A stretch of DNA of 64,000 nt from Chloroflexia bacterium (GTDB lineage Bacteria; Chloroflexota; Chloroflexia; QHBQ01; JADMIH01), in assembly GCA_036386675.1 (NCBI GenBank), contig DASVVE010000065.1, forward strand, positions 11,408 through 75,407, read 5' to 3'. The translations under genes were made by a program, and so were the position numbers. Positions 13,551-37,224 of this stretch are shown here, piece by piece. Position 1 is the first letter of the stretch. The number at the start of each line of letters is the position of its first letter. The notes under the pieces were generated by a model. The model worked only from the letters and a program-made list of their open reading frames with translations, had not been told where the DNA came from and did not search any database.

Positions 13551-13640
13551 AAAGAGGCTTGCACCGCAGCCGCACAAAAGGGGCACGATTGTGCGTGCCC
13601 CTTTTAACATTGCCACTTCTGACCAGCCTACCGCCAACCG

Positions 13641-14735
13641 TTATCGCTTGCTGAAGAAAGCCACCGGCGCGCCACGCTTGGCTTCCTGCTGGCGGTAGGC
13701 TACCACGCTCACCTGGGCGGCGAGGTTGCGGGCTACCTGCATAAAGGCCTCGGCTTCCGGGGTGCCGGGCGAGTCCACCACGACGGGGCGGCCTTCATCG
13801 CCACCTTCCCGGATGCGCAGGTGGAGCGGGATTTCGCCGAGGAAGGGGACGCTGTAGCGGGCTGCCGCCGCCTGCGCGCCACCGTGTCCGAACAGGTCCG
13901 TGGGGTTCTGGCAGTGGGGGCAGACGAAGGTGCTCATGTTCTCCACGATGCCGAGCACCGGCACGTTGAGCTTCTTGAACATCATCAGCGCCTTGCCCGC
14001 GTCGAGCAGCGCCACGTCCTGCGGTGTGGAGACCATCACCGAGCCTGTAAGCGGCACCGACTGCGCGGTGGTGAGTTGCACGTCGCCCGTGCCCGGCGGC
14101 ATGTCCATCACAAGGTAATCCAGCTCGCCCCACTCAACGTCGTACATGAACTGGGTGAGCAGCTTGGTGAGCATCGGGCCGCGCCAGATGACCGGGCTAT
14201 CGGCGTCGATGAAGAAGCCCATCGACATGATCTTGATGCCGTAGGCTTCCACCGGGGCGATCTTCTCGCCAACCTGCTGCGGCTTGGCCGAGGTGCCCAT
14301 CATCAGGGGCACGTTGGGGCCATAAACGTCGGCGTCAAGCAGCCCGATTCTCGCGCCGTCACGAGCCAGGGCCAGCGCCAGGTTGACTGCCACGGTGCTC
14401 TTGCCCACGCCGCCCTTGCCGGAGCCTACCGCCACGATGTTGCGCACGCCGGGTATACCCTGCCGCTCGGTCATGATGCCCTGCCGCACGCGGGAGGTCA
14501 TGTTCGCGCTCACGTCGCGCACGCCCGGTATGGCGGACACCACGGACTCCGACTGCTGCTTCAGTTGCTCCTTGACCGGGCACGCCGGGGTGGTGAGCAC
14601 GACGTTGAAGGACACGTTATTGCGGTCGTCTATGTTAAGTTCTTCTATGAAGCCGAGCGATACGATGTCGCGCCCCAGGTCCGGGTCTTTGACGACGCTC
14701 AGCGCCTGTAACACCTGCTCTTTTGTGATTGGCAT
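13641..14735 (-). CDS. apbC: Mrp/ApbC/NBP35 Fe-S cluster carrier ATPase
   Basis: N-terminal DUF59-like domain, deviant Walker A GKGGVGKST, and a CPHC motif. Start likely at the second ATG (MPITKEQ), which is preceded by GAAAGG. Confidence 0.9.
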   Translation of the reverse strand: MPITKEQVLQALSVVKDPDLGRDIVSLGFIEELNIDDRNNVSFNVVLTTPACPVKEQLKQQSESVVSAIPGVRDVSANMTSRVRQGIMTERQGIPGVRNIVAVGSGKGGVGKSTVAVNLALALARDGARIGLLDADVYGPNVPLMMGTSAKPQQVGEKIAPVEAYGIKIMSMGFFIDADSPVIWRGPMLTKLLTQFMYDVEWGELDYLVMDMPPGTGDVQLTTAQSVPLTGSVMVSTPQDVALLDAGKALMMFKKLNVPVLGIVENMSTFVCPHCQNPTDLFGHGGAQAAAARYSVPFLGEIPLHLRIREGGDEGRPVVVDSPGTPEAEAFMQVARNLAAQVSVVAYRQQEAKRGAPVAFFSKR

Positions 14736-14749
14736 GGGTGCCATCCTTT

Positions 14750-14784
14750 CGATTTTGGATTTTAGATTTCGGATTTTGGATTGC
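14750..14784 (+). repeat. Tandem heptanucleotide array (GATTTTG/GATTTTA/GATTTCG)n in the 5' leader directly upstream of the mrp/apbC RBS
   Basis: cgattttggattttagatttcggattttggattgc. Ends with GGATTG like the other arrays. Confidence 0.9.
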
Positions 14785-19239: not shown

Positions 19240-19247
19240 GTCTAGCC

Positions 19248-19283
19248 TCACGGAGGACCTTACGGAGGACCTTACGGAGGTAA
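19248..19283 (+). repeat. 12-nt direct repeat (CGGAGGACCTTA)x2.5 just downstream of the phosphotransferase stop
   Basis: cacggaggaccttacggaggaccttacggaggtaa. Confidence 0.8.
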
Positions 19284-19306: not shown

Positions 19307-19437
19307 GTCATTTCGAGCGGAGTGAGAAATCTCGTCCTCTACCCCGATGCTCCGTTATTCCTGTGAGACTCTGTGGCTGAGAGAAAGGTGGTATTTGGGT
19401 GGTGAAAGGCGAGATTTCTCACTCCGCTCGAAATGAC
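19307..19437. repeat. 131-bp element bounded by 28-bp perfect inverted repeats (MITE-like or long hairpin), copy 1
   Basis: GTCATTTCGAGCGGAGTGAGAAATCTCG at 19307-19334 is the exact reverse complement of 19410-19437. Intergenic between convergent genes. Confidence 0.85.
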
Positions 19438-22389: not shown

Positions 22390-22541
22390 CCCCCCTTGTC
22401 ATTCCGACCGCAGTGAGGAATCAGGTGGAAGTCGTGCATTGTTGCATTAGGGAGCAAAGCCGACAAGGCCACTCCTGTGCCCCAATTCAGCAGCGTTCCT
22501 ATCCACCTGATTCCTCACTGCGGTCGGAATGACAAGGGGGG
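22390..22541. repeat. Approximately 152-bp element bounded by 39-40-bp perfect inverted repeats (copy 2 of the family at 19307-19437)
   Basis: CCCCCTTGTCATTCCGACCGCAGTGAGGAATCAGGTGGA at 22391-22429 is the exact reverse complement of 22502-22540. The core GTCATTYCGASCGSAGTGAGRAATC is shared with copy 1. Confidence 0.85.
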
Positions 22542-22611
22542 AAGTGAGTCCTGGGGCGCAGCATACTGCTTGCCAATCGCTTGTGCCGCCTGGAAGGTCA
22601 GGGCGGCTCGA

Positions 22612-24339
22612 CTACTCCAGGGGCACTGTGAACCAGAAGGTGCTGCCCACGCCTCCCGGACCTTCCTCCACGCCGATATGGCCCCCATGCGCCTCCACCG
22701 CCAGGCGCGAAATGTAGAGGCCCAGTCCCAGACCTTGCGCGCTGATCTCTTTGCCCCTGTCTCCCCTGTACGCCCTGTCGAAGATGCGCCTGCGCTCCTC
22801 CGGCGGCACCCCCGCCCCCTGGTCCGTCACCGACACCATCAGGCTCGCCGGGGCCAACTCTGCGGTAGTGTACTCGCTGGCGGGCAGTACGAAATGTTTC
22901 TCAGGCGGAGTCCGCTCCACGGCTACCATGATAGCGCCACCGGAGGGTGAATACTTGACCGCGTTGGTGATGAGGTTTGTCAGCACCTGGTCGATGCGAC
23001 GTGCGTCCATCTCGACCTGGGGCAGGTCAGACTCTATACGTACGTCGACGGTGTGAAAGTTTGGCGCGTGGCTCTGCTCGGTGCTGATGCGCCCCGCCAC
23101 GCTCATGACCAGTGCCCCCAGGTCACCAGGCTCCTTGTTGATAGCCTGCACGCCCGACTCCAGCCGCCCGGAGTCAACGAGGTCGCCCACCATGCCGCTC
23201 ATGCGCAGGGCGTTTTCCTTGACCAGCGAGACGTAATTGACCTCTTCCTGGAGGCCGAGCCTGCCTAGCCGTCGGGATAGCATTTGGGCATAGCCGCTGA
23301 TCACGGTGAGGGGTCCGCGTAACTCGTGCGATAGGATGCTCAGGAACTCCTCTTTCATAACATCGGCTTCCCGCTCTTCCGTGATGTCGCGCACCAGAAT
23401 CACCGCGCCATCGCGCCCGCCACCGGGCCGCCGCACCGGGGAGGCTGTCAAGCTCAACACTCGCTCGTCCTCGCGCACCACCCACCTGATGTGGTAGTTC
23501 CGGCACTCGTCACCGCGCTCGAATACCCTGCCCAGCGGCCAGTCCTGCCCGTCGTCCTCGCCAGCGTGCTCTCCCGAAGCCGCGCGCCAGGCACCACTCA
23601 ATACGCAGCTACCCACCAGGCTCGACATCGGCATGCCGAGGATGCGCGCGGCCGCCCGGTTCGCCCGCACGATGGTGCCGGAATTGTCACACATGAGCAG
23701 GCCGTCAGACATGCTGCCCAGTACCGTCTCCATCTCGGCAACGCGCCGCCGGAACTCGCTGTCAGCCGCGACCAGTGCCTTCTCATGCATGACCGCGTTG
23801 GAAATCGACAGGCCAAGTAGTTGCCCCACCACGCGCAACAGTTCTAGGTGGACCATGTTGAAGGCGTTGTAGTTGTGGCTGGATAGGGTCAGCACACCCC
23901 AGATCGTGTTGACGGCCACAATGGTAATGGCGGCCCAACTTTGGGTGCCGGCTTCCTTGGCGGCCCGCGAGACGAACCCGCCGGATTCTTCAAGGCGTTC
24001 GCTACGAGTGACAGGGCCGCCGGACTCCAGTACCAGGCGCAGCGCCGGCTCGTCGGGGGCGAGCACAGACCGCTTCTCGTTGAGGTCTTCCGGCAGGTTG
24101 TGCCTGACCGCAAGCAACCACGTGCCGTCGGGCTGGGGCACGTAAATGCCGCCCCTGTGAGCACCCGTAACCTCGGCTATTCGCCCCAAGGCGCTTTGCA
24201 GCAGTTCTTCGGTGGTCTCGGTGGAGTTTATTGCCGTGGAGATGGAGTCGATGGCCCAGAATACGCGCGTTTGCTCCTCCAGGCGCGAGGCCAGGTTCTG
24301 CCAACCGCTGTTGTCCGGTCCGTCCCAGAAGTTCCCCAC
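22612..24339 (-). CDS. Sensor histidine kinase (GAF + PAS + HisKA + HATPase_c), cytoplasmic
   Basis: H-box FLSILSHELRGPL, N-box NLITNAVKYS, G-boxes DQGAGV / GLGLGLYIS. Confidence 0.9.
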   Translation of the reverse strand: MGNFWDGPDNSGWQNLASRLEEQTRVFWAIDSISTAINSTETTEELLQSALGRIAEVTGAHRGGIYVPQPDGTWLLAVRHNLPEDLNEKRSVLAPDEPALRLVLESGGPVTRSERLEESGGFVSRAAKEAGTQSWAAITIVAVNTIWGVLTLSSHNYNAFNMVHLELLRVVGQLLGLSISNAVMHEKALVAADSEFRRRVAEMETVLGSMSDGLLMCDNSGTIVRANRAAARILGMPMSSLVGSCVLSGAWRAASGEHAGEDDGQDWPLGRVFERGDECRNYHIRWVVREDERVLSLTASPVRRPGGGRDGAVILVRDITEEREADVMKEEFLSILSHELRGPLTVISGYAQMLSRRLGRLGLQEEVNYVSLVKENALRMSGMVGDLVDSGRLESGVQAINKEPGDLGALVMSVAGRISTEQSHAPNFHTVDVRIESDLPQVEMDARRIDQVLTNLITNAVKYSPSGGAIMVAVERTPPEKHFVLPASEYTTAELAPASLMVSVTDQGAGVPPEERRRIFDRAYRGDRGKEISAQGLGLGLYISRLAVEAHGGHIGVEEGPGGVGSTFWFTVPLE

Positions 24340-24525
24340 TCGTCTCCACCTCTGCTGATACAGGCTGCTGCTTGACTACTGGTTGAACATCTGATACAAA
24401 TGCCACGAGTAGCAACCGATGTGTCAAGAGGGCCACAGCGAGCCTCTGTATTAAGAGAGGGCTGCCTACCATCTACTACACCGGGTGCAGGCAATATGAT
24501 AAACCAAAACGAGCAGGAAGGAAAG

Positions 24526-24930
24526 ATGCAGACAGGTCAGGTGCCGGAGGGTGAGCCTGTGGCGCTGCTGTATTGCACAGACCTCATGTTTGGCGTGCAG
24601 TTGCAAAACATGGCACTCAAGACAGGCTATCGCTTCACCAACGCCCGCCCTGGTAGCCCTTTAGCCGATGCAGCCGTCATGATCGTGGACCTGGGTTCGA
24701 GAGGCGACTGGGAAGCTGCGATACGAGAAGTGTCGGCGCGCGGAGTGCCGGTGATCGCCTTCGGCCCCCATATGGACGCGGAGGGGCGCAAGAGAGCCAA
24801 AGCGGCAGGGGCCACCCGTGTGCTCGCCAATTCGAACCTGGCACGAGACCTGCCTCGCATGCTCACGGATCTGAAGGAGCGCGTCCTCACCACGTCTGAC
24901 GAAGATGAAGATGGCGAGCACGACGCCTGA
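24526..24930 (+). CDS. Hypothetical protein (approximately 134 aa) with acidic tail
   Basis: ATG preceded by AGGAAGGAAAG; the ORF continues to 24930 and ends DEDEDGEHDA. No confident domain call. Confidence 0.45.
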   Translation: MQTGQVPEGEPVALLYCTDLMFGVQLQNMALKTGYRFTNARPGSPLADAAVMIVDLGSRGDWEAAIREVSARGVPVIAFGPHMDAEGRKRAKAAGATRVLANSNLARDLPRMLTDLKERVLTTSDEDEDGEHDA

Positions 24931-24976
24931 GCGGGTAGTCTACGCGGGCTTATTTTTGACTGAGAGGGAGACAAGG

Positions 24977-25441
24977 ATGCCTGAAATCGAGGGCGTAGTG
25001 GTAAAGGAACTTGTTACGCACACGGACGAGCGCGGCTTCTTTCGCGAGCTTATCCGCAAGACGGACGACTTCTTTGGCGAAGGGTTTGCCCAATTGAGCC
25101 ACTCGCTCATGCACCCCGGCGTAGCTAAGGCCTGGCACATCCACAAGCACCAGATCGACTGGTGGTACGTGCCGGTGGGGGTGCTCAAGGTGGCCCTCTA
25201 CGATACCCGGGCCGAGTCGCCCACCAAAGGCCTCTTGCAGGAACTGTTCATGGGTGGCGACTACGGGCAGAGGATACTGAAGATACCCCCCGGCGTGGCC
25301 CACGGCTGCAAGGCGATAGGCGGCCCCGCTCACCTCGTGTACGTCACCTCCAACACATACGACCCCAAGGATGAGGGCCGCATCCCCCACGACGACCCGG
25401 AGATTGGCTACGACTGGGTCTCTTTGCCGGAAATAAAGTGA
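24977..25441 (+). CDS. dTDP-4-dehydrorhamnose 3,5-epimerase-like cupin (RmlC family)
   Basis: DERGFFRE, HIHKHQIDWWY and cupin beta-strand pattern. Start taken at MPEIEG to match RmlC N-termini. Confidence 0.65.
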   Translation: MPEIEGVVVKELVTHTDERGFFRELIRKTDDFFGEGFAQLSHSLMHPGVAKAWHIHKHQIDWWYVPVGVLKVALYDTRAESPTKGLLQELFMGGDYGQRILKIPPGVAHGCKAIGGPAHLVYVTSNTYDPKDEGRIPHDDPEIGYDWVSLPEIK

Positions 25442-25456
25442 TGCAAGACAACCAGC

Positions 25457-25630
25457 ACAGCTTCTAAACGCCAAGACGCGGAGACGCCAAGAACCACGCC
25501 AAGCTAGGATTGTGGCACAAGCAAAAGGACCGGAGTGCAACATCACGTACTCCGGTCCTTTTTCTACTCTCCATACCTTATTTCTCTTGGCGCGTTCTCT
25601 GCGTCTCCGCGTCTTGGCGTTTAGTTACCC
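25457..25630. repeat. Approximately 170-bp cruciform-like intergenic repeat element with an embedded rho-independent terminator (copy A)
   Basis: Outer 24-bp perfect inverted repeat CTAAACGCCAAGACGCGGAGACGC / GCGTCTCCGCGTCTTGGCGTTTAG. Central hairpin GGACCGGAGT-loop-ACTCCGGTCC at 25527-25558, flanked by an A-run and a T-run. Shared core (CGCCAAG)x3 and TACTCTCCAWACCT. Confidence 0.85.
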
Positions 25631-25635
25631 AGGAG

Positions 25636-27540
25636 CTATCGCCACCACAGGTCAAGCTTGAGCATGTTGGCCCCCAGGAGGCCAAGTTGCACCTCGAAGC
25701 GAGTGCCCGCGAACTCCGGGTGGTGCTCGAAGCGGTTGCGCTCGAAGTACTGCACCTTGTACTCCTTGCCATCGGTGGGTGACACCTCGGTTATCTCCTG
25801 CGAGATCGGGTAGCCGTAGACCTGTAACCCGCCGTTCTCCTGCCAGTACTTCAAGAAGGCCCCTCCCAGGGTATGCCCTGTTTCGGGAAAGTAGACCAAG
25901 TCGGGGGTTAGCAGCGCGGTGTCAGCCTTGTCGAACGTGCGCCCCTGTGTGAACTCGTTGCCCAGGAGGCGCAATTGCACCTCATAGGGCGTGCCTGTGT
26001 GCTCCGGGTGGTACTCGAAGATGGCCCGCTCGAAGAACTGGCTCAGGTAGCCGTTGAGCGGCACGGGGCGGCTGATTGGGTAGCCGAATAGCTCCAGGCC
26101 GCCATTATCGCGCCAGTAATCGGTGAATTGCCGGGCGATGATCTGTCCGGTCTCTCCGAAGTAAAGCTGGTCCGTGCCCAACACCTGTACTTCGTCTACC
26201 GGGTTCGTAATCGCCCCTCCGCGGGCGATCTCCTGGTACGTGCGGAAGGCAAGCTTACGTATTTCGACGGAGCCGGAGGAATGGTAGCCCGTCCGACTTT
26301 CGTTCTCCATCAGCCTCACTAACCCATAATTGTGCGTGTAGTTGCCGGGCACAAAGTCCTCGTACTTGAACCAGAAGACGCGCGGTATTATCGCTCGAAG
26401 TTCGGAGTCCGCCAGGATACCGGAGTAGAGGCCGCGCAGGTAGTCCGATTGCTTGATCTCCTGCTCGGTGGGTGAGTCCCCACGGTTGGCGGGCGGCACG
26501 GCCTGCTGCCCGATCTCGGTGATCCAGAGCTTGCTCTTATGGTCGCCACGGTCTCGGAACTTACGGGCAAACTCGCGCAACAGGTCGAATAGCTCCGGGT
26601 GGTCCAGGAAGTAAGGGTGCACGGCCACGCCATCCCACGGCACCACGTTCCAACCCGTACGCGTGCTGAACCCGTCGGCCTGGTACTTCTGGACCCAGGG
26701 CGACGTGTAAATCTGGTACAGGTAGTCGAACTGGTCGTGGTCCTGCCCCTCCGGTGGCGAGCCTATCATGATGCCGCCCACGATGACCTGCGCCAGGGGG
26801 TTCACGCTCTTGATGGCACGGTAGCCGTTGAAGATGAGGGCCGCGTACCGTTCGGGGTTTATCTCTGCCGAGCCGTGCCCGCTATCCAGCCACAGGTCGA
26901 AGCTGATGTTCGGCTCGTTGATGATTTCATAGGCGCTAATCGCGGTGCCATAACGGGCCGCTATCGTTTGGGCACGCGCTTTGAAGACGCGGATGAAGTG
27001 ATTGGAGCCGTCGGAAGGGTCGCTACCGCCACCATCGGCGGGATCGTTGAAGGCCAGCGTGCGTAGCGTTTCGCCGTTGAAGGCCACCATGCCCACGTTC
27101 AACAGGGCGAGCACCTTCAGGTTGTACTTGGGCGCAAGCTCCCGGATGAACCAGTCATACTTCTCCCAGTTGATCTCGCCGGGCTGGACGGAGCCGTCGT
27201 AATCGGCAAAGAACTCCATGCGTATCCAGCGTACGCCGAGAGAGGCCAGTTCCGAGGCTTGCCGCTCGAGTGCCACTTTGTTGGGCTGCATGGGAAAATT
27301 CACCGGGTCGGTGTTGAACTCGTAAAAGGGGTCGCGGGCCACCATGCCAAAAAGCTCGCCATCATTGGTGCGCATCGCGAGAGGCGAAATCTCCAGGCTG
27401 GGCGCGGCGGGAGCGGTGGGGTCCACAAGGGTCTGAGCGCGGGCGGGCTGCTGGGCGGGGGCTATACCCGTTGCCAGGAGCAGCGCGCATGCCAGTATCG
27501 TAAATGCCCGTTTGTTGCGTCGTAAGAATGAAACCAGCAT
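25636..27540 (-). CDS. Secreted glycoside hydrolase (GH5-like clan GH-A) with two C-terminal LGFP-like repeats
   Basis: Signal peptide; NEP acid/base motif (EIINEPN) and TEIG nucleophile motif (LWITEIGQ). Two approximately 55-aa repeats: F-x-E-T-G-x-I...YW..NGGL..GYPIS...QFFERA.FEYHP. Confidence 0.6.
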   Translation of the reverse strand: MLVSFLRRNKRAFTILACALLLATGIAPAQQPARAQTLVDPTAPAAPSLEISPLAMRTNDGELFGMVARDPFYEFNTDPVNFPMQPNKVALERQASELASLGVRWIRMEFFADYDGSVQPGEINWEKYDWFIRELAPKYNLKVLALLNVGMVAFNGETLRTLAFNDPADGGGSDPSDGSNHFIRVFKARAQTIAARYGTAISAYEIINEPNISFDLWLDSGHGSAEINPERYAALIFNGYRAIKSVNPLAQVIVGGIMIGSPPEGQDHDQFDYLYQIYTSPWVQKYQADGFSTRTGWNVVPWDGVAVHPYFLDHPELFDLLREFARKFRDRGDHKSKLWITEIGQQAVPPANRGDSPTEQEIKQSDYLRGLYSGILADSELRAIIPRVFWFKYEDFVPGNYTHNYGLVRLMENESRTGYHSSGSVEIRKLAFRTYQEIARGGAITNPVDEVQVLGTDQLYFGETGQIIARQFTDYWRDNGGLELFGYPISRPVPLNGYLSQFFERAIFEYHPEHTGTPYEVQLRLLGNEFTQGRTFDKADTALLTPDLVYFPETGHTLGGAFLKYWQENGGLQVYGYPISQEITEVSPTDGKEYKVQYFERNRFEHHPEFAGTRFEVQLGLLGANMLKLDLWWR

Positions 27541-27827
27541 CTCTTTTTTGCTTTACCTCAACTACTTCAACAGTCTTCCAGGCGCGATAACTGGCCGCGC
27601 GGCATGCGGCCGTACGCACATCAATAGGTGAATAGTGCGGTGCCGAAGCTGGCACCCTAAGTAGAAGACGGACCAATGAGCCGCGGGTTGCGCTCCTGGC
27701 GCGCCTCGTGTAACAGAACGGAGCCACAGACCAAACCGGGCGGCTTCGTCTGCGCCTCTCTCTGCCATATTATACCAGTTCCGGAGGCCGAGTAGCGCGG
27801 GCGATGTGGAAAAATAACCGGTTGTAA

Positions 27828-28187
27828 CTAATGCCCGTCCACGATACCCGGTCCTGTTACTGGCAGTTTCTCAGCTTGCCAGGACAGCATCCCACCCTCC
27901 AGGTTGGCCGCGTCTATGCCGACCTGGCGGAGCATGGCAGCTACGTAGTTGGAGCGACTGCCGCTGTGACACACCACCACCAGCTTGCGCCCTGGGTCGA
28001 GCTCGCGCCAGCGTGTCTGCAAGTGGCCCATCGGTATCCACTTCGCGCCCTCTATATGGCCCTGGTTCCACTCATCCGGCTCCCGCACGTCGAGCAGGTC
28101 CACCTCGCCCCTCTCAAAGTGCTCCTGTGTGGCCTTCGCTTCGACCTGTGGAACGCCCGCGAATGGGTCCTCGTTGGGTCCGTACAT
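27828..28187 (-). CDS. Rhodanese-domain sulfurtransferase
   Basis: Active-site loop CHSGSRS. Confidence 0.85.
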   Translation of the reverse strand: MYGPNEDPFAGVPQVEAKATQEHFERGEVDLLDVREPDEWNQGHIEGAKWIPMGHLQTRWRELDPGRKLVVVCHSGSRSNYVAAMLRQVGIDAANLEGGMLSWQAEKLPVTGPGIVDGH

Positions 28188-28224
28188 GCTCGATGTCGCC
28201 TTTCGATGCCCCTGCCGGTAGGCT

Positions 28225-29769
28225 CTACTGAAAGTCCTTGATCAACTCGATAGCCCTGAGGATATGAGGGTCTTCACTCTCAGGGTATTCACTCCACTGG
28301 ACGTCAATCTCCTCATCGGGTATGACGCCGGTGCCTTCCAGGGTCGTGCCGTCGGGCAGCTGGAAGCCTTCTTCGGCCAACCAGAGCCGCGAGCCATCAT
28401 CGAAGTCGTAGGGGTATACCGTTTCGGTGTTGCCCGCGCTAGGTACGCCCACCACCTGGGCGCGCCCGGCGTACTGCAAGGCAGCGGTCATCATCTCCGA
28501 GGCGCTCTCGGAACCTTCATCCACCAGGATTACCAGCGGTATGTCGCGCAGGTCTCTGTAGTGCGAGCCCCTGGGCGGGATCATCGCGCGGTCGCTACCT
28601 TTGGAAGCATAGTTGCCCGACTCGCCGGTGAGGAACTGGCCGGCGATACGCTCCATCGTATCAAGCAAGCCGCCACCATTGCCGCGAAGATCGATGATTA
28701 CGCCCGACAGAGGCTCATCGCCGTCGAGGAGTGCTGCAAGCTCCTCATCTACCAGTTCATCCATGTCCTCCGGGTCGAAGCTAGGCACGATGAGGTACCC
28801 CACCGACGGGTCCGCTTCCAGCCTGTGGCCCATGGGAACTACCTTCCCGGTGATGGGTCGCCTGACCAGGTCGATATCGCGTGGCGCTTCACCAGGCGAG
28901 CGTACCGTCAGCTTTACGGTTGTGCCCTCCGGGCCGCGGACGCGGCTCAAGTCCTCGTCTTCCGTCGTAATAGGTATGCCGTCCACCGCGGTAATAACGT
29001 CGCGCCGCCGAAGCCCGCCTTCCTCGGCGGGGCTGCCGGGGAAAACATATACTATCTGTATTTCATCCTCTTTATACCGGCTGAAGATTCCGACGCCCAC
29101 ATAGTTGTAATTCCCGCTCATCGCGTCGTCTTCTTCTTTGGCCTCCCACGGCGAGATGTAGCGCGAGTGGTCGTCCCCAAGCTCCGCGATCATATCATCT
29201 ATCGCGAGGTAAAACTCGTCGCCCGTCGTAACCTCGCTAACGAGGGCCTCGTATTCGTCCCTGAGCGCGTCCCAGTCGGCACCTCGGAAGTCGTCATACA
29301 GGTAGTTGTCCCGCACCGTTTCCCACACCTGCGTGAAAAGTTCCAGGCGTGCGGCAGAGGGCATTACCGTGGCGACAGGGGTAGCTTCCTCGGCTACGGC
29401 AGTCGGGGTGTCCCTTGGAGCGCGGGTTCGCGTGGGAGCTGCCTCGGTGGGAACTACCTCCGTGGGAGTATCTTCATCTCCGCCGCCACCAAACGACTTG
29501 CCGGTAGTGGGTGTGGCGGCAGGCTCTTCCTCCGGCGTGTCCGTAGGCTCCTCGACCGGCACTTCTTCCGTCGGCGTGTCCTCCAATATGCGTTCGGTGG
29601 GCAGGGGCACCACACGAGTGGCACGGGGCGTACGTGTCGCGGCCACCGCTACCGTGGTGGGTGTGGCCTGGGTGCTCACCGGAAGGTCGGTGCAGCCCCA
29701 TAGAAGCAAGGCGGCCATGACAAATAGCATGGCGTTGAAAGCAAATCGCCTGGTGTGAGTTTGCGGCAT
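28225..29769 (-). CDS. C-terminal processing peptidase, family S41 (lipoprotein, PDZ-containing)
   Basis: Lipobox LLWGC; PDZ (GSPAEEGGLRRRDVITAVDG); catalytic region IIDLRGNGGG ... VDEGSESASE. Confidence 0.85.
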   Translation of the reverse strand: MPQTHTRRFAFNAMLFVMAALLLWGCTDLPVSTQATPTTVAVAATRTPRATRVVPLPTERILEDTPTEEVPVEEPTDTPEEEPAATPTTGKSFGGGGDEDTPTEVVPTEAAPTRTRAPRDTPTAVAEEATPVATVMPSAARLELFTQVWETVRDNYLYDDFRGADWDALRDEYEALVSEVTTGDEFYLAIDDMIAELGDDHSRYISPWEAKEEDDAMSGNYNYVGVGIFSRYKEDEIQIVYVFPGSPAEEGGLRRRDVITAVDGIPITTEDEDLSRVRGPEGTTVKLTVRSPGEAPRDIDLVRRPITGKVVPMGHRLEADPSVGYLIVPSFDPEDMDELVDEELAALLDGDEPLSGVIIDLRGNGGGLLDTMERIAGQFLTGESGNYASKGSDRAMIPPRGSHYRDLRDIPLVILVDEGSESASEMMTAALQYAGRAQVVGVPSAGNTETVYPYDFDDGSRLWLAEEGFQLPDGTTLEGTGVIPDEEIDVQWSEYPESEDPHILRAIELIKDFQ

Positions 29770-29775
29770 CTTATC

Positions 29776-30969
29776 CTACTTTGCTGCTGGTGCCCATTGG
29801 GGCTGAAAGTCCGTACCGGCCCCGGAGGAGATTACCTTCAGGCCGGAGCCGTCAACATTACCTATTACTATCTTGTATCCCGGAGTTGGGTTCTCCGGGC
29901 GGTCGCTCGCCCAGGTGAGCCTCTTACCATCAGGGGACCACGAGGGAAGGTAATCCTCCCCATTGTCAGGTGTGACTACCGTGGGTGTGCCGCCCTCCAG
30001 GGGGACGGTTAGAATATCGGTACCCTGAGACTCAACTAGCACCCTATGATAGGCGAGCCTCGGCGGCTCTACAGGCGATAGCTGAATGCTTTTTACGGAG
30101 GCGGGTTCGATGATGTCTCTCACCTCGCCGCCAGCGACAGGCACGACGGCAATAGTCTGGATGCGGTCTCCGCTGCCCTGTGCGAAGACAATCGACTGGC
30201 CGTCCCGAGTCCAGATCGGGTTGGTCTTTACAGAGCCGTTGCTGGTGATCGCCCTGGCCGCGCCACCGGCTGCCGGGATTACATGGATCTCTCCTGAGGC
30301 GCTCTGACCATCGCTCAACACATATCCTATGCTCTGGCTGTCCGGCGACCACGTTGGGAACTTGGCCTGGCCTTTGCCGTCGGTCACCATGCGCTTGTCC
30401 GAGCCATCAGCCTTCATAACGTGGATCTGCCAGTCACCACCCCCCCGCTTCGACTGCACGGCGATCTGCGTGCCGTCGGGCGACCAGGCGGGGAAGACGC
30501 TCTCGGCGGTGTCCCCGTCGGTGAGATTGAGTATCTCCACTGGCTTGTTGTCCGGCCCCACCTCAACCCTCAATATGGCCGCGACATTGTTGAACTGGGC
30601 CTGCGCGACTATGTACCTGCCATCTGGAGACCATGCACTCTGGTCGATGATGATGTCACGGGTAAGTTGCTGCTGGTTGGTGCCGTCCGGATTGACCACA
30701 AACAGGCTTTGGGCTTGGCCCTCCAGCAGGCGCACGAAGCTGATACGACCTTCCGGGGATGCTTGAGGGACGGTTGGACCCAGACCCCAGCGTATGAAAG
30801 GAGGCAGCACCGTCGGCGCGGCCAGCAACAGCGTAACGTACATGAGGGCCAGGGCCGTTAATATGCCGGCAGCCACAAGCGCTGCCGCTGGTCTGGCGGC
30901 CACCTGCTGGAATTGTGAAGACCGGCCGGCCTGTCTGCCGGACGAGTCTCGCCTGGAACGATTGCTCAT
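29776..30969 (-). CDS. TolB-like periplasmic beta-propeller protein (PD40 repeats) with N-terminal TM anchor
   Basis: Repeated W/F-S-P-D-G-x motifs (SWSPDGRYI, AWSPDGTQI, TWSPDSQSI, SWSPDGKRL). Confidence 0.75.
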   Translation of the reverse strand: MSNRSRRDSSGRQAGRSSQFQQVAARPAAALVAAGILTALALMYVTLLLAAPTVLPPFIRWGLGPTVPQASPEGRISFVRLLEGQAQSLFVVNPDGTNQQQLTRDIIIDQSAWSPDGRYIVAQAQFNNVAAILRVEVGPDNKPVEILNLTDGDTAESVFPAWSPDGTQIAVQSKRGGGDWQIHVMKADGSDKRMVTDGKGQAKFPTWSPDSQSIGYVLSDGQSASGEIHVIPAAGGAARAITSNGSVKTNPIWTRDGQSIVFAQGSGDRIQTIAVVPVAGGEVRDIIEPASVKSIQLSPVEPPRLAYHRVLVESQGTDILTVPLEGGTPTVVTPDNGEDYLPSWSPDGKRLTWASDRPENPTPGYKIVIGNVDGSGLKVISSGAGTDFQPQWAPAAK

Positions 30970-31074
30970 GTTGAAGAACGCTCTAGTATAGAGTTTAGCA
31001 CCGCGCCGGGAATGGGGAGCCGCGCGGAACCTAACATTATTATAGCGTACGGGAGGCTAACGGCTCAAGCGGAT

Positions 31075-31250
31075 TAGACGGAAACGCCAAGACGCAAAGA
31101 CGCCAAGGACCACGCCAAGTTTTGGCAGGTGTTCATAAGTAAAAGGAGCAGGGTACGACAGTACGTACCCTGCTCCTTTTTGTACTCTCCAAACCTCTAT
31201 ACTCTCTTGGCGCGTCCTTGGCGTCTTGGCGTCTTGGCGTTTCCGTCTGT
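31075..31250. repeat. Copy B of the cruciform-like repeat element with embedded terminator
   Basis: Outer inverted repeat AGACGGAAACGCCAAGACGC / GCGTCTTGGCGTTTCCGTCT. Central 13-bp hairpin GGAGCAGGGTACG / CGTACCCTGCTCC at 31145-31176 plus T5. Same flanking core as copy A. Confidence 0.85.
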
Positions 31251-31258
31251 TCGAGCGG

Positions 31259-31768
31259 TCAGGAGCTAAAGCGGTTGACCACTTCCGCAATCTGGTCTAT
31301 GTCGAAGGGCTTGGTCACCACGGCCACCGCGCCTGTCTCCTCCTGGGTGCGCTTGATGTCGTACACGGCGGTGACGACCACGATCGGGATGCTTGCCCAC
31401 TCGCGGTTGGTGCGAAGCGCGCGAATAAACTCCCACCCGTCCATGACAGGCATCATCAGGTCAAGCAGGATCAACTGGGGCTTGCGCTCCAGTACCCGCT
31501 CGAGGGCCTCCATGCCGTTGGACGCCGTGCGCGCCGTGTGCCCCTCAGCCTCCAGCACGTCGGCTACAAGGTCGCACAGGTACGCTTCATCTTCAACAAC
31601 GAGCACATCTTTCGGCTCGTTCAGGGCATCTCCAAGGCTCCGATCAGGTCGCATATCGGGTGGCTGCATTCCCCTGCCGCCCTTACCGGGCCGCAGAATA
31701 TAGTGCGACTGCGTGGTGGCTGGCCCCGCCACACCGTACTCGCCGGTAGCATAAAATCGTCGAGACAT
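31259..31768 (-). CDS. Single-domain CheY-like response regulator (start probably internal, near MQPPDMRPD)
   Basis: VLVVEDEAYL ... LILLDLMMPVMDG ... IPIVVVTA receiver motifs. Confidence 0.8.
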   Translation of the reverse strand: MSRRFYATGEYGVAGPATTQSHYILRPGKGGRGMQPPDMRPDRSLGDALNEPKDVLVVEDEAYLCDLVADVLEAEGHTARTASNGMEALERVLERKPQLILLDLMMPVMDGWEFIRALRTNREWASIPIVVVTAVYDIKRTQEETGAVAVVTKPFDIDQIAEVVNRFSS

Positions 31769-31919
31769 GGGGGAGATGCTTGTCCTTAGATGAGTCTCGT
31801 TATAATAGTCCCAATGAGAAGGGCTGAATAGATGATCCGGTGCAAGTTACGTGCCAGCAGCCGACAGTAACCACGCTTATTTCATGCGTATCTATCAATA
31901 AATTGACCTATCTAACCGC

Positions 31920-32363
31920 CTAGCCTCCTCTTTCTCTCTCCAGCACCACCGACACCTCAGCCGTAGTGCTCCCCTTAAGGGGAGGGCTTGGCTTGCCTAC
32001 CTCTACCCGCGCCCTGGTTATGCGCGCGTCGAATTGCAGCACGCGGTCCAGGAGGCGGCCCGCCAGGTGTTCCAGCAGCTTGCTCGGCTCCCCCTCCACT
32101 TCTGCGCGCACCAGCTTGTAGATGGCCGAATAACTGACAGTGTCTTCCAGCCGGTCGGAGCGCGAAGCCGCCGACATGTCGAGCCACAACGAGAGGTTTA
32201 CGGCGAAGCGCTGCCCCAGGGCCGTTTCTTCAGGGTTCGCACCGTGAGTCCCGAAGAAGACCATGTTGCTCAGCCGTATCTCACCAGGCTCGACCCGCGC
32301 GTGCCCAGGTCCATTCGTTGCACTCATAAGGCCGATTGTACATCGCTTGACGCTGCCCCGCAA
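31920..32363 (-). CDS. folB: Dihydroneopterin aldolase
   Basis: FolB core (FFGTHGANPEETALGQRFAVNLSL ... VSYSAIYKLV ... LLEHLA). Confidence 0.8.
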   Translation of the reverse strand: MRGSVKRCTIGLMSATNGPGHARVEPGEIRLSNMVFFGTHGANPEETALGQRFAVNLSLWLDMSAASRSDRLEDTVSYSAIYKLVRAEVEGEPSKLLEHLAGRLLDRVLQFDARITRARVEVGKPSPPLKGSTTAEVSVVLERERGG

Positions 32364-32441
32364 GGAGTGTTATACCGTTGAGGCGTGCGTGTCTGCACGC
32401 TAAATGAGCATTCGATATATGCAAAGGGAGTGACCTATCAC

Positions 32442-33341
32442 ATGGCCGACAGCGATACTAGAGACAACTCCGACAACAAAATTATCAATGACGAAGCTAA
32501 CACCAGCCAGGGCCAGGCAACCGCCGGTACGCAATCACCCGCCCAGCTTCAAAGTTCAGCAACCAGTGTGCCAACCCCTCCCTCGCTGCCTCCCATGAAC
32601 CCTATCGAGCGGCCCGGCCCGACGGCCGAGGAGTGGCCGGAGGAGCAGCGCAGGGTGCTCCTGGTGGCGGCTCACCCCGACGACCCGGAGTTCTCCTCGG
32701 CGGGCACTGTGGCGCGCTGGGTGCGGGCGGGCATAGAAGTAATATTCGTGGTGGCGACCAGCGGCGACAAGGGCACCCCTGACCGCTCGATGACCAACGA
32801 GCGACTCAGCAATTTGCGCGAAGACGAGCAGCGAGCCGCGGCCGCGCGCCTGGGCGTGACCACGGTGGAGTTCCTGCGCTTCGGTGACGGCGAATTGATG
32901 CCCAACATGGAACTGCGCGGGGCCGTGACCTACATGATCCGCAAGTATCGCCCCTACGCCGTGATGACTCACGACCCACTCACCCTGTTCTACAATAACG
33001 AGTTCATCAACCACCCCGACCATCGCGCCATCGGCCAGGCCACCGTGGACGCCATTTACCCCACCGCTCGCGACCCACTTCAGTTCCCCGACCACATCCG
33101 CGAGGGTCTTGAGCCTCACAAAGTGAAGGAGATTTACCTCTGGGGCACCGAGGAACCCAACATCCTGATTGACATCACCGAGACCATAGAGGACAAGATA
33201 GAGGCATTGAAATTGCATGTTACGCAGGTGGGAGAAGCAGTTGAGCTGGGCAATCGGATAAAGACCCGTGCGTCCCAGATAGGCGAGCCATACGGTATCG
33301 CCTATGCCGAAGCTTACCGTCGCGTGGTCATGCGTATGTGA
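32442..33341 (+). CDS. PIG-L/LmbE-family N-acetylglucosaminyl deacetylase with low-complexity N-terminal tail
   Basis: LLVAAHPDDPEF motif and zinc-binding His/Asp pattern (HPDH). AAGGGAG upstream of the ATG. Confidence 0.75.
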   Translation: MADSDTRDNSDNKIINDEANTSQGQATAGTQSPAQLQSSATSVPTPPSLPPMNPIERPGPTAEEWPEEQRRVLLVAAHPDDPEFSSAGTVARWVRAGIEVIFVVATSGDKGTPDRSMTNERLSNLREDEQRAAAARLGVTTVEFLRFGDGELMPNMELRGAVTYMIRKYRPYAVMTHDPLTLFYNNEFINHPDHRAIGQATVDAIYPTARDPLQFPDHIREGLEPHKVKEIYLWGTEEPNILIDITETIEDKIEALKLHVTQVGEAVELGNRIKTRASQIGEPYGIAYAEAYRRVVMRM

Positions 33342-33438
33342 ACGGGACTATAGCTTTGCGCGCAACGGGCTGCATTGAGAACGTTGCGACCGGCTACATT
33401 GAGACAGTACATCCGCACGTGGGAGAGGACAGGGGGGA

Positions 33439-36345
33439 ATGGAGTCTACAAACAGGAGGGACCCACGGCTTGCTGGAGGGGCATACACGGCGTTGCAGAG
33501 CCTCCTGGGAGCGGTAGCTCACACTGTGGGGGCAACGCAGGTCTGCCTCATCTCGCCCAGCTACGACCCCGAGTGCATCACCCTGGTCCAGTCCGGCGAG
33601 GCATCTGGCGAGGGAGAGCCTTTCGAGTCGCGTGAGAGCGACGTGACAGTGCCCGTGCGCTACGGGGAACTTGAGCTTGCGCAACTCGTAGTGGTGGAAG
33701 CCGCTACCACCGTAGACCGAGAGCGTCTTGACGCATTCGCGCGAGCAGCAGGCTACATCCTGGGGCATGCCGAGCAGGTGTCAAGGGCCGAATCGGTCAT
33801 GGAAGAGACACGAGTGCTGCGGGAGCTTGGCATGCGTCTCGGCCAGCCAACCGACCTGCAAGAGTTGCTCGACTCGATGCTGGCGGGCGTGCGCCGGGTG
33901 CTCAACGCTGATTACGCAAGCATCGCCACTGTGGAGTCGGACGGCACGACCAGGTGGCTCGCGATGGACGGCTTCCGCACTCCTACATACAGGGACCACA
34001 TTTTCCCGCCGGGGCACGGGGTTTCAGGACGCACCATCGCCGCCGGGCGACCCGTCGTAGTAAGAGATATCGGCACCGATCCCAGCGTGCCTGCCGAGGA
34101 CTTCACGGTCCACATTGCCGAGGGGGGCGTGTCGGCGCTGGGGGTGCCGCTTGTGGCGGGCGGCAAGACGATTGGCGCGCTCATCATGGGCAGCCGCACC
34201 GACCGCGACTGGCAGCAACACGAAATCGAGCTTGCGACCGTGATAGCCAATGGCGCGGCGGTGGCTATCGACCAGAACCGCGCCCAGAGGGCGGAAAGCG
34301 CCCAACGCCACTTCCTGCAAGAGGTAATAGACCATTATCCCGGCATCCTCCTCGTAATGGGCCCACCACCCGATTGGCGCGTCATCCACGCCAACAGCCA
34401 GTTCAGCAGGTTCCTGCCCGAGCCTTATCGCAGCGGCCAGTCCATCGTGGGCCTGAGCGTCCTGGAACTTGGCACTCAAAACACCGAACGATCTGAGGCT
34501 ACGCGGCAGATGCTTGCGCACGTCTTCACCACCGGGGAGCCTATCTCCTTCGAGCAATACGAGTCGGAAAATCCCGAAGCAGGCACCACCTACTGGAACT
34601 GGCAAGCCCTGCCTGTGGACAACCTGACCGGCGACGGGGAGCGCTCCCTCATGCTCATAGCTAACGAAGTCACCGACGTGGTACGCTCCCGGCAGGCCGC
34701 GCAAGAAGGTGCGGAACTGGCGCGGGCCAGGGCTGAAGAACTTGAGATGATCATCAGCCACATGGCCGACGGCGTGATGATTTTCGACCGCAACGGCGAA
34801 GTGCTACGTATGAACCCGGCGGCTGAGATGTTGCTGGGCAAGGGCGTTGTGCCTGGTGCCCTACCCGAGGCGCACGCCGCACTGTACGGGCTGTTCACCG
34901 CCGAGGGCGAACCATATGAGGCCGAGCAGCTACCCTCCATGCGAGCGCTACAGGGCGAGGTGGTTGTGGGTGAGAACGTCCTGGTACGGCAGCCCAACCA
35001 CCCGGAGACCATCCTGGGGATAAGTTGCGCCCCTCTTAGCGGTCCCCAGGGCGAGACAATAGGCGCGGTGGCAGTGCTGCACGACATTACCCAGGACAAG
35101 CTCGTGGAGCGGCTGAAGGACGAGTTCCTTTCCATAGTGAGCCACGAGCTGCGGACGCCTCTCACCGCCATCATTGGCTACAGCGACTTGATGCTTCGTG
35201 GCGTACACGGCGCATTGGCGGACCGCCAGGCGAAGGTGCTCAACTCGGTCCGCGCCAATGCCGACAGGCTGCTGCGCCTGATAAACGACCTGCTCGACGT
35301 TTCCAAGCTGGAGTCGGGCGCGGTGCAGTTGCGCCTCGACCCCCTCGACCTAGGAGAAATCGCCGGTCGTACGTTAGCGCAGACCCGTATCCTGGCGATG
35401 AACGCGGGCGTGCAGATTGCCAACCTGCTCCCCAACAGGCACTTGAACAAGGTCCGGGCCGACGACCAGAAGCTTCAGCAGGTATTCGAGAACCTGATAA
35501 CGAACGCCATCAAACACTCAGCCGGGGGAAGCATAACGATAGACGGCTACCTCACGCCTCTGGAGCCTGACGACCCCGGCTTGCTCGTGTACGAGCCACC
35601 TTCGCAACCGCTCGAGGAGGGGCAGGCCCGCAGCCTCGTGGTATCCGTACATGACACCGGGGCGGGCCTCGAAGCGGACCAGCTTGCCCGCATCTGGGAC
35701 AAGTTCTACCAGGTAGACACGACAGTCAAACGCCGCTCTGGTGGGGCGGGACTTGGCCTGACGATAGTGCGCAACCTGGTCGATCTCCACAGCGGGCAGG
35801 TGTGGGCCTACAGCGCGGGGCCGGGTACAGGCAGCACCTTCAGCTTCAGCCTGCCCATCGTGCAGGGGGACTACGGCACTTACACGCGACCCGGCGACAG
35901 GATACCCCTCGGAGCCAGGTCCGTAGAGCAGAGGCGCGATCGCCAACCCGCTATTGGCACGGTGTTGGTTGCCGAGGACGACGCGGACCAGCGGGAAATC
36001 ATCTGCGACATGCTGCAATTGGAAGGCTTCGAGGTGGTGCTAGCCGAAACGGGCGAAGAGGCGCTGGAGCTGGCGACCCAGATCATGCCCTCGGCCATCG
36101 CGCTCGACGTGATCCTGCCGAGGCGCGACGGCTGGGAGGTGCTGGAGGCACTGAGGCAAGACCCCCGCACCAAAGACATCCCGGTGCTGATTATCTCGGT
36201 GGTGGACCAGACCGAGTTCGGCAAGAAGCTGGGCGCGGACGAGTACCTGCTCAAACCGCTCGACCCACGCAGCCTGCGCACCGCCATTCGTCGCCTGGTG
36301 CTCGCCCACGAACGCGACAGAGCCGCCAACCAGCAGAACAACTGA
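33439..36345 (+). CDS. Hybrid sensor histidine kinase (multiple GAF/PAS + HisKA + HATPase_c + C-terminal REC)
   Basis: H-box FLSIVSHELRTPL, ATPase G-boxes, and terminal receiver VLVAEDDADQ...ALDVILPRRDGW. Confidence 0.9.
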   Translation: MESTNRRDPRLAGGAYTALQSLLGAVAHTVGATQVCLISPSYDPECITLVQSGEASGEGEPFESRESDVTVPVRYGELELAQLVVVEAATTVDRERLDAFARAAGYILGHAEQVSRAESVMEETRVLRELGMRLGQPTDLQELLDSMLAGVRRVLNADYASIATVESDGTTRWLAMDGFRTPTYRDHIFPPGHGVSGRTIAAGRPVVVRDIGTDPSVPAEDFTVHIAEGGVSALGVPLVAGGKTIGALIMGSRTDRDWQQHEIELATVIANGAAVAIDQNRAQRAESAQRHFLQEVIDHYPGILLVMGPPPDWRVIHANSQFSRFLPEPYRSGQSIVGLSVLELGTQNTERSEATRQMLAHVFTTGEPISFEQYESENPEAGTTYWNWQALPVDNLTGDGERSLMLIANEVTDVVRSRQAAQEGAELARARAEELEMIISHMADGVMIFDRNGEVLRMNPAAEMLLGKGVVPGALPEAHAALYGLFTAEGEPYEAEQLPSMRALQGEVVVGENVLVRQPNHPETILGISCAPLSGPQGETIGAVAVLHDITQDKLVERLKDEFLSIVSHELRTPLTAIIGYSDLMLRGVHGALADRQAKVLNSVRANADRLLRLINDLLDVSKLESGAVQLRLDPLDLGEIAGRTLAQTRILAMNAGVQIANLLPNRHLNKVRADDQKLQQVFENLITNAIKHSAGGSITIDGYLTPLEPDDPGLLVYEPPSQPLEEGQARSLVVSVHDTGAGLEADQLARIWDKFYQVDTTVKRRSGGAGLGLTIVRNLVDLHSGQVWAYSAGPGTGSTFSFSLPIVQGDYGTYTRPGDRIPLGARSVEQRRDRQPAIGTVLVAEDDADQREIICDMLQLEGFEVVLAETGEEALELATQIMPSAIALDVILPRRDGWEVLEALRQDPRTKDIPVLIISVVDQTEFGKKLGADEYLLKPLDPRSLRTAIRRLVLAHERDRAANQQNN

Positions 36346-36401
36346 GGCGGGGCTACTCAGCGGAGTCTGCCGTGCCCTTTTGGGACGTTAAGGGAGATAC
36401 T

Positions 36402-37103: not shown

Positions 37104-37119
37104 CGAGCAGCCTGTATCC

Positions 37120-37224
37120 ATGAGCGACAAGCGCCTCACCATGCGGGAAGCTGTTTCGACCTATGTTCGAGACGGCCAAACGCTGGCCCTGGAAGGCTTC
37201 ACCTCCTCCATTCCAGGTAACTAG
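37120..37224 (+). pseudogene. 34-codon remnant of a family I CoA-transferase subunit A (GctA/AtoD-like) N-terminus
   Basis: MSDKRLTMREAVSTYVRDGQTLALEGFTSS matches the conserved N-terminus of CoA-transferase A subunits (MTL.DAI.KYV.DGD.IALGGFT), then stops. Followed by an AT-rich approximately 300-bp tract. Confidence 0.6.

Follow-up and report, generated by a model that had tools for sequence, protein, structure and literature searches.

Two spacers between genes in a 64,000-nucleotide stretch of contig DASVVE010000065.1 from a Chloroflexia bacterium (hereafter the window) are occupied by a long palindromic element. Copy A lies between the convergent genes for a dTDP-4-dehydrorhamnose 3,5-epimerase-like protein and a 634-aa protein, and copy B lies between a response-regulator receiver gene and the gene for a PD40/TolB-like beta-propeller protein. 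Both were noticed in an earlier inspection of the letters alone (the sequence-only reading), and both are indeed present as near-perfect long palindromes (Table 1). It is practically certain that they are members of a repeat family. We propose that this family is a dispersed, non-autonomous palindromic repeat in which the arms are the terminal repeats and the centre is probably a bidirectional intrinsic terminator.

Each copy consists of two inverted arms enclosing a central hairpin, whose 17-nt inverted repeat takes in an A-run, a GC-rich stem and a T-run. The arms are tandem arrays of an 8-nt unit, ACGCNNAG, which occurs with the variants ACGCCAAG, ACGCGGAG, ACGCAAAG and ACGCAGAG in three to five units per arm. 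The sequence-only reading recognized that A and B share these arms but described them as CGCCAAG triplets, while the true period is 8 nt. By eye the arms of both copies reach ~40–44 nt inward, up to CGCCAAG / CTTGGCG. Allowing up to two mismatches, the arm 14-mer AAACGCCAAGACGC has six matches in the window, all within A or B, against 0.51 expected, and none of 100 shuffles reaches six. The conserved box postulated earlier, TACTCTCCAWACCT, is found once in each copy, to the right of the hairpin only, and is kept in the family alignment; taken alone it is weakly significant, as 5 of 100 shuffles give two or more. The element is asymmetric because this box stands on one side only, and in copy A the box (TACTCTCCATACCT) is a diverged palindromic counterpart of the left spacer.

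The stems of the two central hairpins differ at three positions, all three of them compensated. The structure is conserved, as had been claimed, but the two hairpins are homologous variants and not unrelated sequences. In copy A the loop is 8–12 nt, depending on the formation of the top G-C/U-A pairs; a T-run at 25559–25563 and T-rich tails on both strands make the hairpin terminator-like whichever way it is read. Predicted folding energies are −29.3 kcal/mol on the plus strand and −26.1 on the minus strand for the hairpin of A, and −31.3 and −31.6 kcal/mol for that of B, with z-scores of −4.8 to −8.2. For the whole elements the values are −100.7 kcal/mol (A, z −14) and −118.9 kcal/mol (B, z −16), and no other spacer in the window has as high a folding energy per base as the two that contain them (−0.52 kcal/mol/nt).

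A scan for the arm pattern AAACGCCAAGACGCNNAGACGC in one genome per prokaryotic species returned at least 107 matching stretches, most of them from four metagenome-assembled genomes (MAGs) of Chloroflexia/Chloroflexota (SMAG_U3237, SMAG_U3210, PEA bin11 and PEA bin13). From these four related MAGs at least 45 full-length copies were extracted with the help of BLAST. They are 160–175 bp long, intergenic save for one doubtful overlapping open reading frame (ORF) call at L046, and 72–87% identical to A or B over their full length. Since this identity includes the non-palindromic spacers, it indicates common descent of the copies and not merely a shared form. BLAST or visual inspection revealed further copies in closer relatives of the window genome (L189–L192). 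The sequence-only reading had staked its interpretation on the existence of additional copies, and there are dozens. A covariance model (R1) built from 40 copies finds only A (172 bits on the plus strand, 139 on the minus) and B (185 and 149) in the window, the plus orientation outscoring the minus by 33–36 bits. Its matches lie in the four MAGs and the window; Chloroflexia copies score 130–196 bits and composite forms 75–130 bits. The family belongs to a clade of uncultured soil Chloroflexia. The window, which corresponds to contig Ga0334948_000017 of JGI metagenome 3300034760, is from a species distinct from the four MAGs, with coding DNA ~70–80% identical. Many copies are cut by contig ends (L052, L053, L022, L042, L007, L015, L048, L101, L103), so the repeat evidently breaks short-read metagenome assemblies and copy numbers in MAGs are underestimates.

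Rfam gave no match in the window at gathering thresholds, permissive E-values yielding only sub-threshold matches of microRNA hairpins to copy A, and none in 17 loci from other phyla. A full-text search of a literature library for the arm sequence returned no paper. BLAST of copy B against a plasmid collection gave no match, possibly through low-complexity masking. The arm pattern likewise had no match among viral contigs, which makes a phage origin of the element unlikely.

Covariance modelling, which the sequence-only reading had proposed should more copies turn up, revealed strong covariation in both hairpin and arms. RNAalifold folds the 40-copy alignment into a single long hairpin whose tip is formed by the terminator stem. 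It comprises 43 pairs, with 95.8% of the cells paired and 15 of the 43 pairs changed on both sides; the 30 arm pairs are 96.4% paired across the 40 copies. Not one of 500 column shuffles matches the observed value on any of five measures, and when partners are slid by one to three columns as a control, pairing falls to 34–50%. In the hairpin 10 of 13 pairs covary; at pair 93–119, for example, 19 copies have C-G and 15 have G-C. In the second arm unit a variable dinucleotide is matched over ~140 nt in 31 of the 40 copies (CA/TG 19, GG/CC 6, AA/TT 4, AG/CT 1, CG/CG 1). Complementarity is higher within than between copies, both for the arms (0.933 vs 0.908) and for the hairpin (0.904 vs 0.805), and none of 5000 permutations is as high. 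The structure is therefore under constraint or actively maintained. The arms have 37 G-T against 23 A-C mismatches and the hairpin 20 against 16, roughly equal frequencies that point to no single transcribed strand; constraint on both strands or on the DNA fits equally well.

The centre has the form of a terminator in both directions. A GC-rich stem-loop is followed directly by a U-run on either strand, as in intrinsic terminators, the U-run being short or interrupted in many copies. Across the 40 copies, the 8 nt after the core stem contain on average 5.1 T on the plus strand and 5.25 on the minus strand, with at least five T in 33 and 32 copies, respectively. Plain hairpins of the same style stand in other spacers of the window between convergent or tandem genes (CACAAAAGGGGCACG...CGUGCCCCUUUUAAC at 13551–13640; also 2490–2567 and 37500–37600), from which it appears that this lineage terminates with palindromes composed of an A-run, a GC stem and a U-run. 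The centre of the element appears to be one of these palindromes, and it is likely that it terminates transcription.

The position of the copies relative to genes is also characteristic of intrinsic terminators: they follow a stop codon where a transcription unit ends. Genes on the family loci were called with a simple caller based on codon-position GC content, which reproduced the genes of the source contig. Of 33 copies with genes called on both sides, 16 lie between convergent and 15 between tandem genes; the remaining two are in divergent settings, both doubtful. The stop codon of the incoming gene is mostly 0–25 nt from the AAACG anchor and sometimes inside the CTAAACG terminus. In tandem settings the upstream stop adjoins the element in all 15 cases, with the next start codon 43–160 nt off, and the orientation of the asymmetric centre shows no bias with respect to transcription (9 vs 6). 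The claim that both copies in the window sit exactly at gene 3' ends is correct for copy A and, for copy B, correct with respect to the upstream gene, but copy B also precedes the next start by 106 nt. Between copy B and that start is a promoter-like site whose TTGAG and GCTATAAT are invariant in four orthologous loci (PD40 proteins 68–92% identical), which puts copy B precisely at the junction of two transcription units, after the end of the first and ahead of the promoter of the second. In the same four orthologues a block CCGCGCG...CCCAT...GCTA.A.TC is conserved in the 5' leader of the PD40 gene (30970–31038, minus strand); it may be a structured leader or an operator.

Table 1. Coordinates of the two elements, their parts and the adjoining genes in the window
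Feature	Position	Strand	Remarks
Copy A, whole element, 161 bp	25464..25624	+	orientation set by asymmetric centre; inverted arms; covariance-model score; fold
Copy A, inverted arms, 31 nt	25464-25494 / 25594-25624		94% complementary
Copy A, left arm, 8-nt units CTAAACGCCAAG ACGCGGAG ACGCCAAG AACCACGCCAAG	25464..25503	+	type II terminus CTAAACG
Copy A, central hairpin	25520..25565	either strand	A-tract; GC-rich stem GGACCGGAGT / ACTCCGGTCC
Copy A, central inverted repeat, 17 nt	25520-25536 / 25549-25565		
Copy A, TACTCTCCATACCT box, right spacer	25565..25578	+	conserved columns in family alignment
Copy A, right arm, inverted octamer array	25586..25624	+	period 8; end CGTTTAG
Copy B, whole element, 173 bp	31076..31248	+	inverted arms; covariance-model score; fold
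Copy B, inverted arms, 35 nt	31076-31110 / 31214-31248		97% complementary
Copy B, left arm, AGACGGAAACGCCAAG ACGCAAAG ACGCCAAG GACCACGCCAAG	31076..31119	+	type I terminus; period 8, 3.0 copies
Copy B, central hairpin	31141..31180	either strand	17-bp perfect palindrome, 100% complementary; 6-nt loop; T-run 31177-31181
Copy B, central inverted repeat, 17 nt	31141-31157 / 31164-31180		
Copy B, TACTCTCCAAACCT box	31183..31196	+	
Copy B, right arm, inverted octamer array	31206..31248	+	period 8, 3.5 copies; end CGTTTCCGTCT
dTDP-4-dehydrorhamnose 3,5-epimerase-like gene	24905..25441	+	stop codon 22 nt before copy A
634-aa protein, no Pfam match	25636..27540	-	convergent on copy A; stop codon 11 nt from element; also called on source contig
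Response-regulator receiver gene	31259..31768	-	stop codon 10 nt before copy B along transcription
PD40 / TolB-like beta-propeller gene	29776..30969	-	start 106 nt downstream of copy B
Promoter-like site of PD40 gene, TTGAGC-18-TATAAT	31039..31068	-	begins 8 nt downstream of copy B

Comparison of orthologous sites revealed presence or absence of the element as well as exchange of its parts. Site A was defined by the epimerase gene converging on the 634-aa gene, and site B as the copy B locus upstream of the PD40 gene. In the closest relative found, GCA_030156005.1 (L189), ~14.7 kb is colinear with the window (22556–37214) at 87.5% DNA identity, the PD40 protein is 92% identical and both sites are filled. 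Two metagenome relatives (L115 and L116, 82% protein identity) lack the element at site A, where only 15 nt separate the stop codons. At this site L111 has a perfect palindromic terminator of unrelated sequence, and L109 and L110 have arrays of other short repeats, among them an octamer array standing alone. The element is thus present or absent at the same site, in relatives too diverged (~80% protein identity) for the junction to be placed to the base. The element occupies site B in relatives with PD40 protein identities of 92%, 81% and 68%. In L190 and L191 its centre is inverted relative to the window and both arms carry a new, mutually matched variant (AAACGCATCACGCAAAG / CTTTGCGTGATGCGTTT); in L192 a different array replaces the left arm.

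A further comparison is provided by two sites in L024 and L086, which are orthologues at ~91% DNA identity. Flanks and arms are nearly identical, and column identity is 93% and 91% for the two sites. At the first site most positions differ among the variable sites of the hairpin, in the loop and in the right spacer, and three adjacent stem pairs have changed with compensation; at the second, one and the same unit differs in both arms. So much change within 60 nt between similar flanks does not come from point mutation: the centre has been replaced, which would most simply be explained by gene conversion from another copy through the shared arms. Recombination between the inverted arms of a single copy would explain the flipped centre and the matched arm variants. 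In a comparison of L024:5516–5708 with L086:2210–2405, the 12 nt beyond the right terminus (ACTTGCTGGTTA) are almost exactly the reverse complement of the left flank (TAACCAGCAAAG) in one orthologue and not in the other; it looks as though the palindrome has grown outward into flanking DNA.

The earlier designation of the element as a modular terminator cassette fits these data: it is multi-copy, its centre is terminator-like, it follows stop codons, its centre is exchanged or flipped with the arms kept, and its modules occur in other combinations. The arms are found with a second, nested arm pair (TTCACCGCAGAG ACGCAGAG...) and another hairpin (L003, L055, L013, L091, L074, L075, L052), in left/right chimeras (L017, L022), and, where the hairpin is lacking, as single arms together with inverted 7-nt arrays (GGACGAT...ATCGTCC, CTCAGTC; L001, L009, L030, L051, L093). 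Among 142 termini, 66 are of type I (...GAGACGGAAACG) and 47 of type II (CTAAACG); comparison of the flanks over these 142 revealed no consistent direct repeat that could represent a target-site duplication. Type II ends can be written C-TA-[AACGCC...GGCGTT]-TA-G, in which TA is not distinguishable from element sequence. The arrangement C-TA...TA-G is also the expected result of TA duplication in a CTAG target, as with IS630-like elements, and the two cannot be told apart from the data. In ~0.5 Mb of Chloroflexia loci, no arm pair 0.7–3.5 kb apart was found around an ORF that might encode a transposase. The element shares with transposable elements of the miniature inverted-repeat type (MITEs) its terminal inverted repeats, small size, lack of coding capacity, many dispersed copies and presence or absence at an orthologous site, and may belong to that class. 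Membership in the REP/REPIN class, 20–40 bp hairpins with an unpaired GTAG or CGTC tag, was rejected because no such tag stands beside the central hairpin in the alignment.

These observations lead us to infer the following mechanism. RNA polymerase arriving from either side would transcribe the 12–13 bp GC-rich stem, with its upstream A-run and downstream T-run, into a hairpin followed by U residues and release the transcript. The inverted ACGCNNAG arrays around this centre would act as the terminal inverted repeats of the element, which may have spread in the manner of MITEs or REPs to many sites after stop codons and been retained there as a means of ending transcription units. With arms nearly identical across copies, recombination between copies would swap the central cassette, and recombination between the two arms of one copy would flip the centre and keep the arms complementary. 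Ectopic and intra-element recombination together would thus probably shuffle the centre and homogenize the arms.

Arrays of the same unit occur outside the Chloroflexia. Among the matches listed, 48 are non-Chloroflexia loci, about 25 of which carry an array plus an inverted partner ending in GCGTT(T), 47–240 nt apart; the centres between these cross-phylum inverted arrays are lineage-specific, and several genomes have 2–10 loci among these matches. Inverted ACGCNNAG arrays are found in Proteobacteria, Myxococcota, Planctomycetota, Acidobacteriota, Verrucomicrobiota, Bacteroidota and methanogenic archaea (L002, L004, L005, L010, L020, L031, L049, L056, L060, L062, L066, L069, L073, L076, L077, L096, L097, L105). 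The carriers include an uncultured proteobacterium, Caulobacteraceae, Wenzhouxiangella, Sorangium (a complete genome), Polyangia, several Planctomycetota, Acidobacteriota, Verrucomicrobiota and Bacteroidota, and Methanocella; in Methanobacteriota MAG266, with ten loci, the arrays face the opposite way within a 190-bp repeat. In the loci from other phyla 72 of 92 period-8 arrays belong to the ACGCNNAG unit family, and the Chloroflexia loci also contain many heptamer families. Where genes could be called in other phyla, the setting is tandem in 14 cases, convergent in five and divergent in none. Among loci selected for an unrelated gene, 315 kb in all, octamer arrays appeared in Chloroflexia relatives only. 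Unit identity was imposed by the search pattern; the inverted partner, outer terminus, copy number and variable positions were not. The 48 loci are not stray matches. It is doubtful, on our estimate, that the arms constitute a single module which at least seven bacterial phyla and methanogenic archaea have in common, with ACGCNNAG units, a shared terminus AAACGCC...GGCGTTT and, between the paired inverted arrays, centres specific to each lineage. If they do, this would point to an unrecognized, horizontally spreading superfamily of miniature elements with a transposase that reads octamer arrays, or to conserved machinery that recognizes or generates such arrays at gene ends. The occurrence of the arrays in unrelated phyla is unexplained and, if not a coincidence of repeat composition, poses a new question of its own. 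Sigma-54 promoter mimicry, binding arrays for CsrA or Hfq, and retron or CRISPR-like arrays were considered and dropped as poor fits, as were Rho loading sites, given the wrong spacing and archaea that lack Rho.

Several observations weigh against a terminator repeat as a full account of the element. The T-run is interrupted in many copies (TCTTTGT) and pairs with the A-run. A terminator is not indispensable at site A, since L115 and L116 have 15 nt and no hairpin between the convergent genes. A terminated transcript lacks the second arm, so that termination cannot explain why the arms are the best conserved part and complementary, and the same arms around unrelated centres in other phyla suggest that they have a role of their own. 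Neither a consistent target-site duplication nor, in the loci examined, an arm-flanked transposase was found. Some of these points would suit a purely selfish miniature mobile element that is tolerated downstream of genes and whose hairpin serves as a palindrome in mobility, not in host termination. Such an element would be dispersed and multi-copy, as this one is, could be missing from relatives that have no terminator whatever at site A, and could have arms better conserved than its centre; the argument of a tolerated site has been made for SPRITE, RUP and insertion sequence (IS) elements between convergent genes (PMC3049150). We nevertheless think a purely selfish nature unlikely, in view of the retention of the element at site B down to 68% PD40 identity with the hairpin preserved by compensatory change, its place at the stop-proximal end of tandem spacers in 15 of 15 cases, the conserved promoter that directly follows it, and a centre shaped like the ordinary terminators of this genome.

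The conservation of the arms could also reflect a function on DNA, either as an array bound by a protein (a transposase, or a nucleoid or topology factor) or as a cruciform, with the terminator as an interchangeable passenger. The arms are ~100% conserved between orthologues as the centre diverges, their variants are matched in 31 of 40 copies over ~140 nt, the balance of G-T and A-C mismatches is that expected for DNA, and they occur alone or with other modules and, in archaea and at least six further bacterial phyla, flank unrelated centres as inverted pairs. However, no candidate protein is known, an 8-bp period would put successive sites on different faces of the helix, recombination between inverted repeats can also produce matched arms, and placement after stop codons is left unexplained; we therefore hold this to be quite improbable. 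A role at the RNA level, as the structured small RNA family that the sequence-only reading had offered as an alternative or as a 3' untranslated element whose arms pair in read-through transcripts and are then cut by an RNase III-type enzyme or bound by a regulator, would account for the very stable long stem (z −14 and −16) and its covariation. Correia elements of Neisseria are subject to RNase III-type processing, which lends this idea some support. Repeats are also mentioned as RNA-processing sites in a review by Delihas (PMC3184786). No promoter is apparent inside the element and no promoter-like motif is conserved there, both orientations relative to genes occur without bias, neither strand has an excess of G-U over A-C mismatches, no Rfam family matches, and the second arm would rarely be transcribed if the centre terminates. 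The small RNA family is not borne out, and an RNA-level role in general seems to us very improbable.

The closest functional precedent for a terminator repeat is SPRITE of Streptococcus pneumoniae, a dispersed repeat of ~105 bp with a long stem and a U-rich tract, strongly enriched near the 3' ends of coding sequences and between convergent genes (PMC3049150; PMC3184786). Co-option as a terminator has been proposed for SPRITE, for which a target-site duplication and a matching IS are not established (PMC3049150). The likeness, which is not expected to extend to sequence, is functional and positional only, comprising the stem with its U-rich tract, the 3' ends of coding sequences and the convergent genes: SPRITE is an AT-rich repeat of a Firmicute, with ~30 copies and terminal repeats of AAAA/TTTT only, whereas the present element is 160–175 bp long, has 40-nt arms of tandem 8-nt units, is explicitly two-way and shows exchange and inversion of its centre at orthologous sites. 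In form it resembles Correia (CREE) elements of Neisseria, ERIC, RUP and Nezha MITEs, which are likewise 100–200 bp, non-coding, bounded by terminal inverted repeats, present in many intergenic copies, able to form long hairpins and variably present or absent (Delihas 2011, PMC3184786). Elements of the Correia/ERIC/RUP type, however, differ in their defined target duplications, often TA, and in some cases a matching transposase (neither was found here), and their terminal repeats are not tandem arrays of short units. REP, BIME and REPIN sequences, the GTAG/CGTC palindromes, are also extragenic, often downstream of genes, with proposed roles in termination or mRNA stability and inverted dimers that give long hairpins (Di Nocera 2013, PMC3733652; Bertels and Rainey 2011, PMC3116915). 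A REP is 20–40 bp, carries a GTAG or CGTC tag and, for the GTAG type, is associated with a RAYT transposase (PMC3733652), whereas the hairpin described here is tagless and the element four times longer. The best reading of the element is as a dispersed repeat that supplies two-way terminators just after gene ends, of a kind known from other bacteria, SPRITE-like in its presumed working and MITE-like in form.

The arms themselves recall short intergenic tandem repeats. The GGGAATC heptamers of Xanthomonas form two convergent arrays in 70–75 cases per genome (Rehm et al. 2015, PMC4692102), with array lengths that vary between close relatives and a type that is preserved (PMC4692102); heptamer repeats of cyanobacteria and Beggiatoaceae are also short intergenic tandem units (PMC4679880). 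Unlike the present element, arrays of the Xanthomonas type are G-rich and have been investigated for quadruplex formation; neither a terminator centre nor a common non-repeat core has been described for them, and their inverted pairs have no known function (PMC4692102). The window contains inverted pairs of tandem 7-nt arrays (GGATTTT, TGAAACG, AATTACG) around short centres at 10922–10954/11102–11133, 54668–54691/54746–54761 and 57318–57337/57358–57388. These share the architecture of the arms with other units, and AAACGTG, AATTACG, ACGATGG and AACCACT recur in loci of the related MAGs. Two more heptamer arrays (14747–14782 and 12462–12502) immediately precede start codons or ribosome-binding sites (genes 13641–14744, minus strand, and 12546–13550, plus strand), much as TAACTGA repeats lie upstream of start codons in Beggiatoaceae and cyanobacteria (PMC4679880).

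Other repeats are present as well. A second, unrelated palindromic family, GTCATTYCGA..GTGAGRAATC, is found in the window at 22390–22541, with a 40-nt perfect inverted repeat (22390/22502), and at 19307–19437; its relatives in L006, L030, L033 and L075 are sometimes nested in an octamer-armed element, and the colinear alignment with L189 stops at the edge of such a repeat (window 22556). Tandem repeats with longer units, of 12 nt (CCTTACGGAGGA, 2.9 copies) and of 18/36 nt, occur at 19246–19280 and 37646–37761. DNA encoding the C-terminal part of the 634-aa protein (25673–25881) matches other loci that bear the element (L051 twice, L095), so that this protein probably comes from a paralogous family.

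Taken as a terminator repeat, the element is a clear example, in a phylum that has been little studied, of how a family of repeats can supply the ends of genes with two-way terminators that are ready to use, one route by which the boundaries of transcription units may be newly made or renewed. For an uncultured lineage, the comparisons are unusually informative: sites that are empty, filled, exchanged or flipped, together with arm covariation over ~140 nt, make this a natural system for the study of inverted-repeat recombination and of the concerted evolution of short dispersed repeats. In practice, Chloroflexi genetics could draw terminators from these elements, which could also be used to mark lineages.

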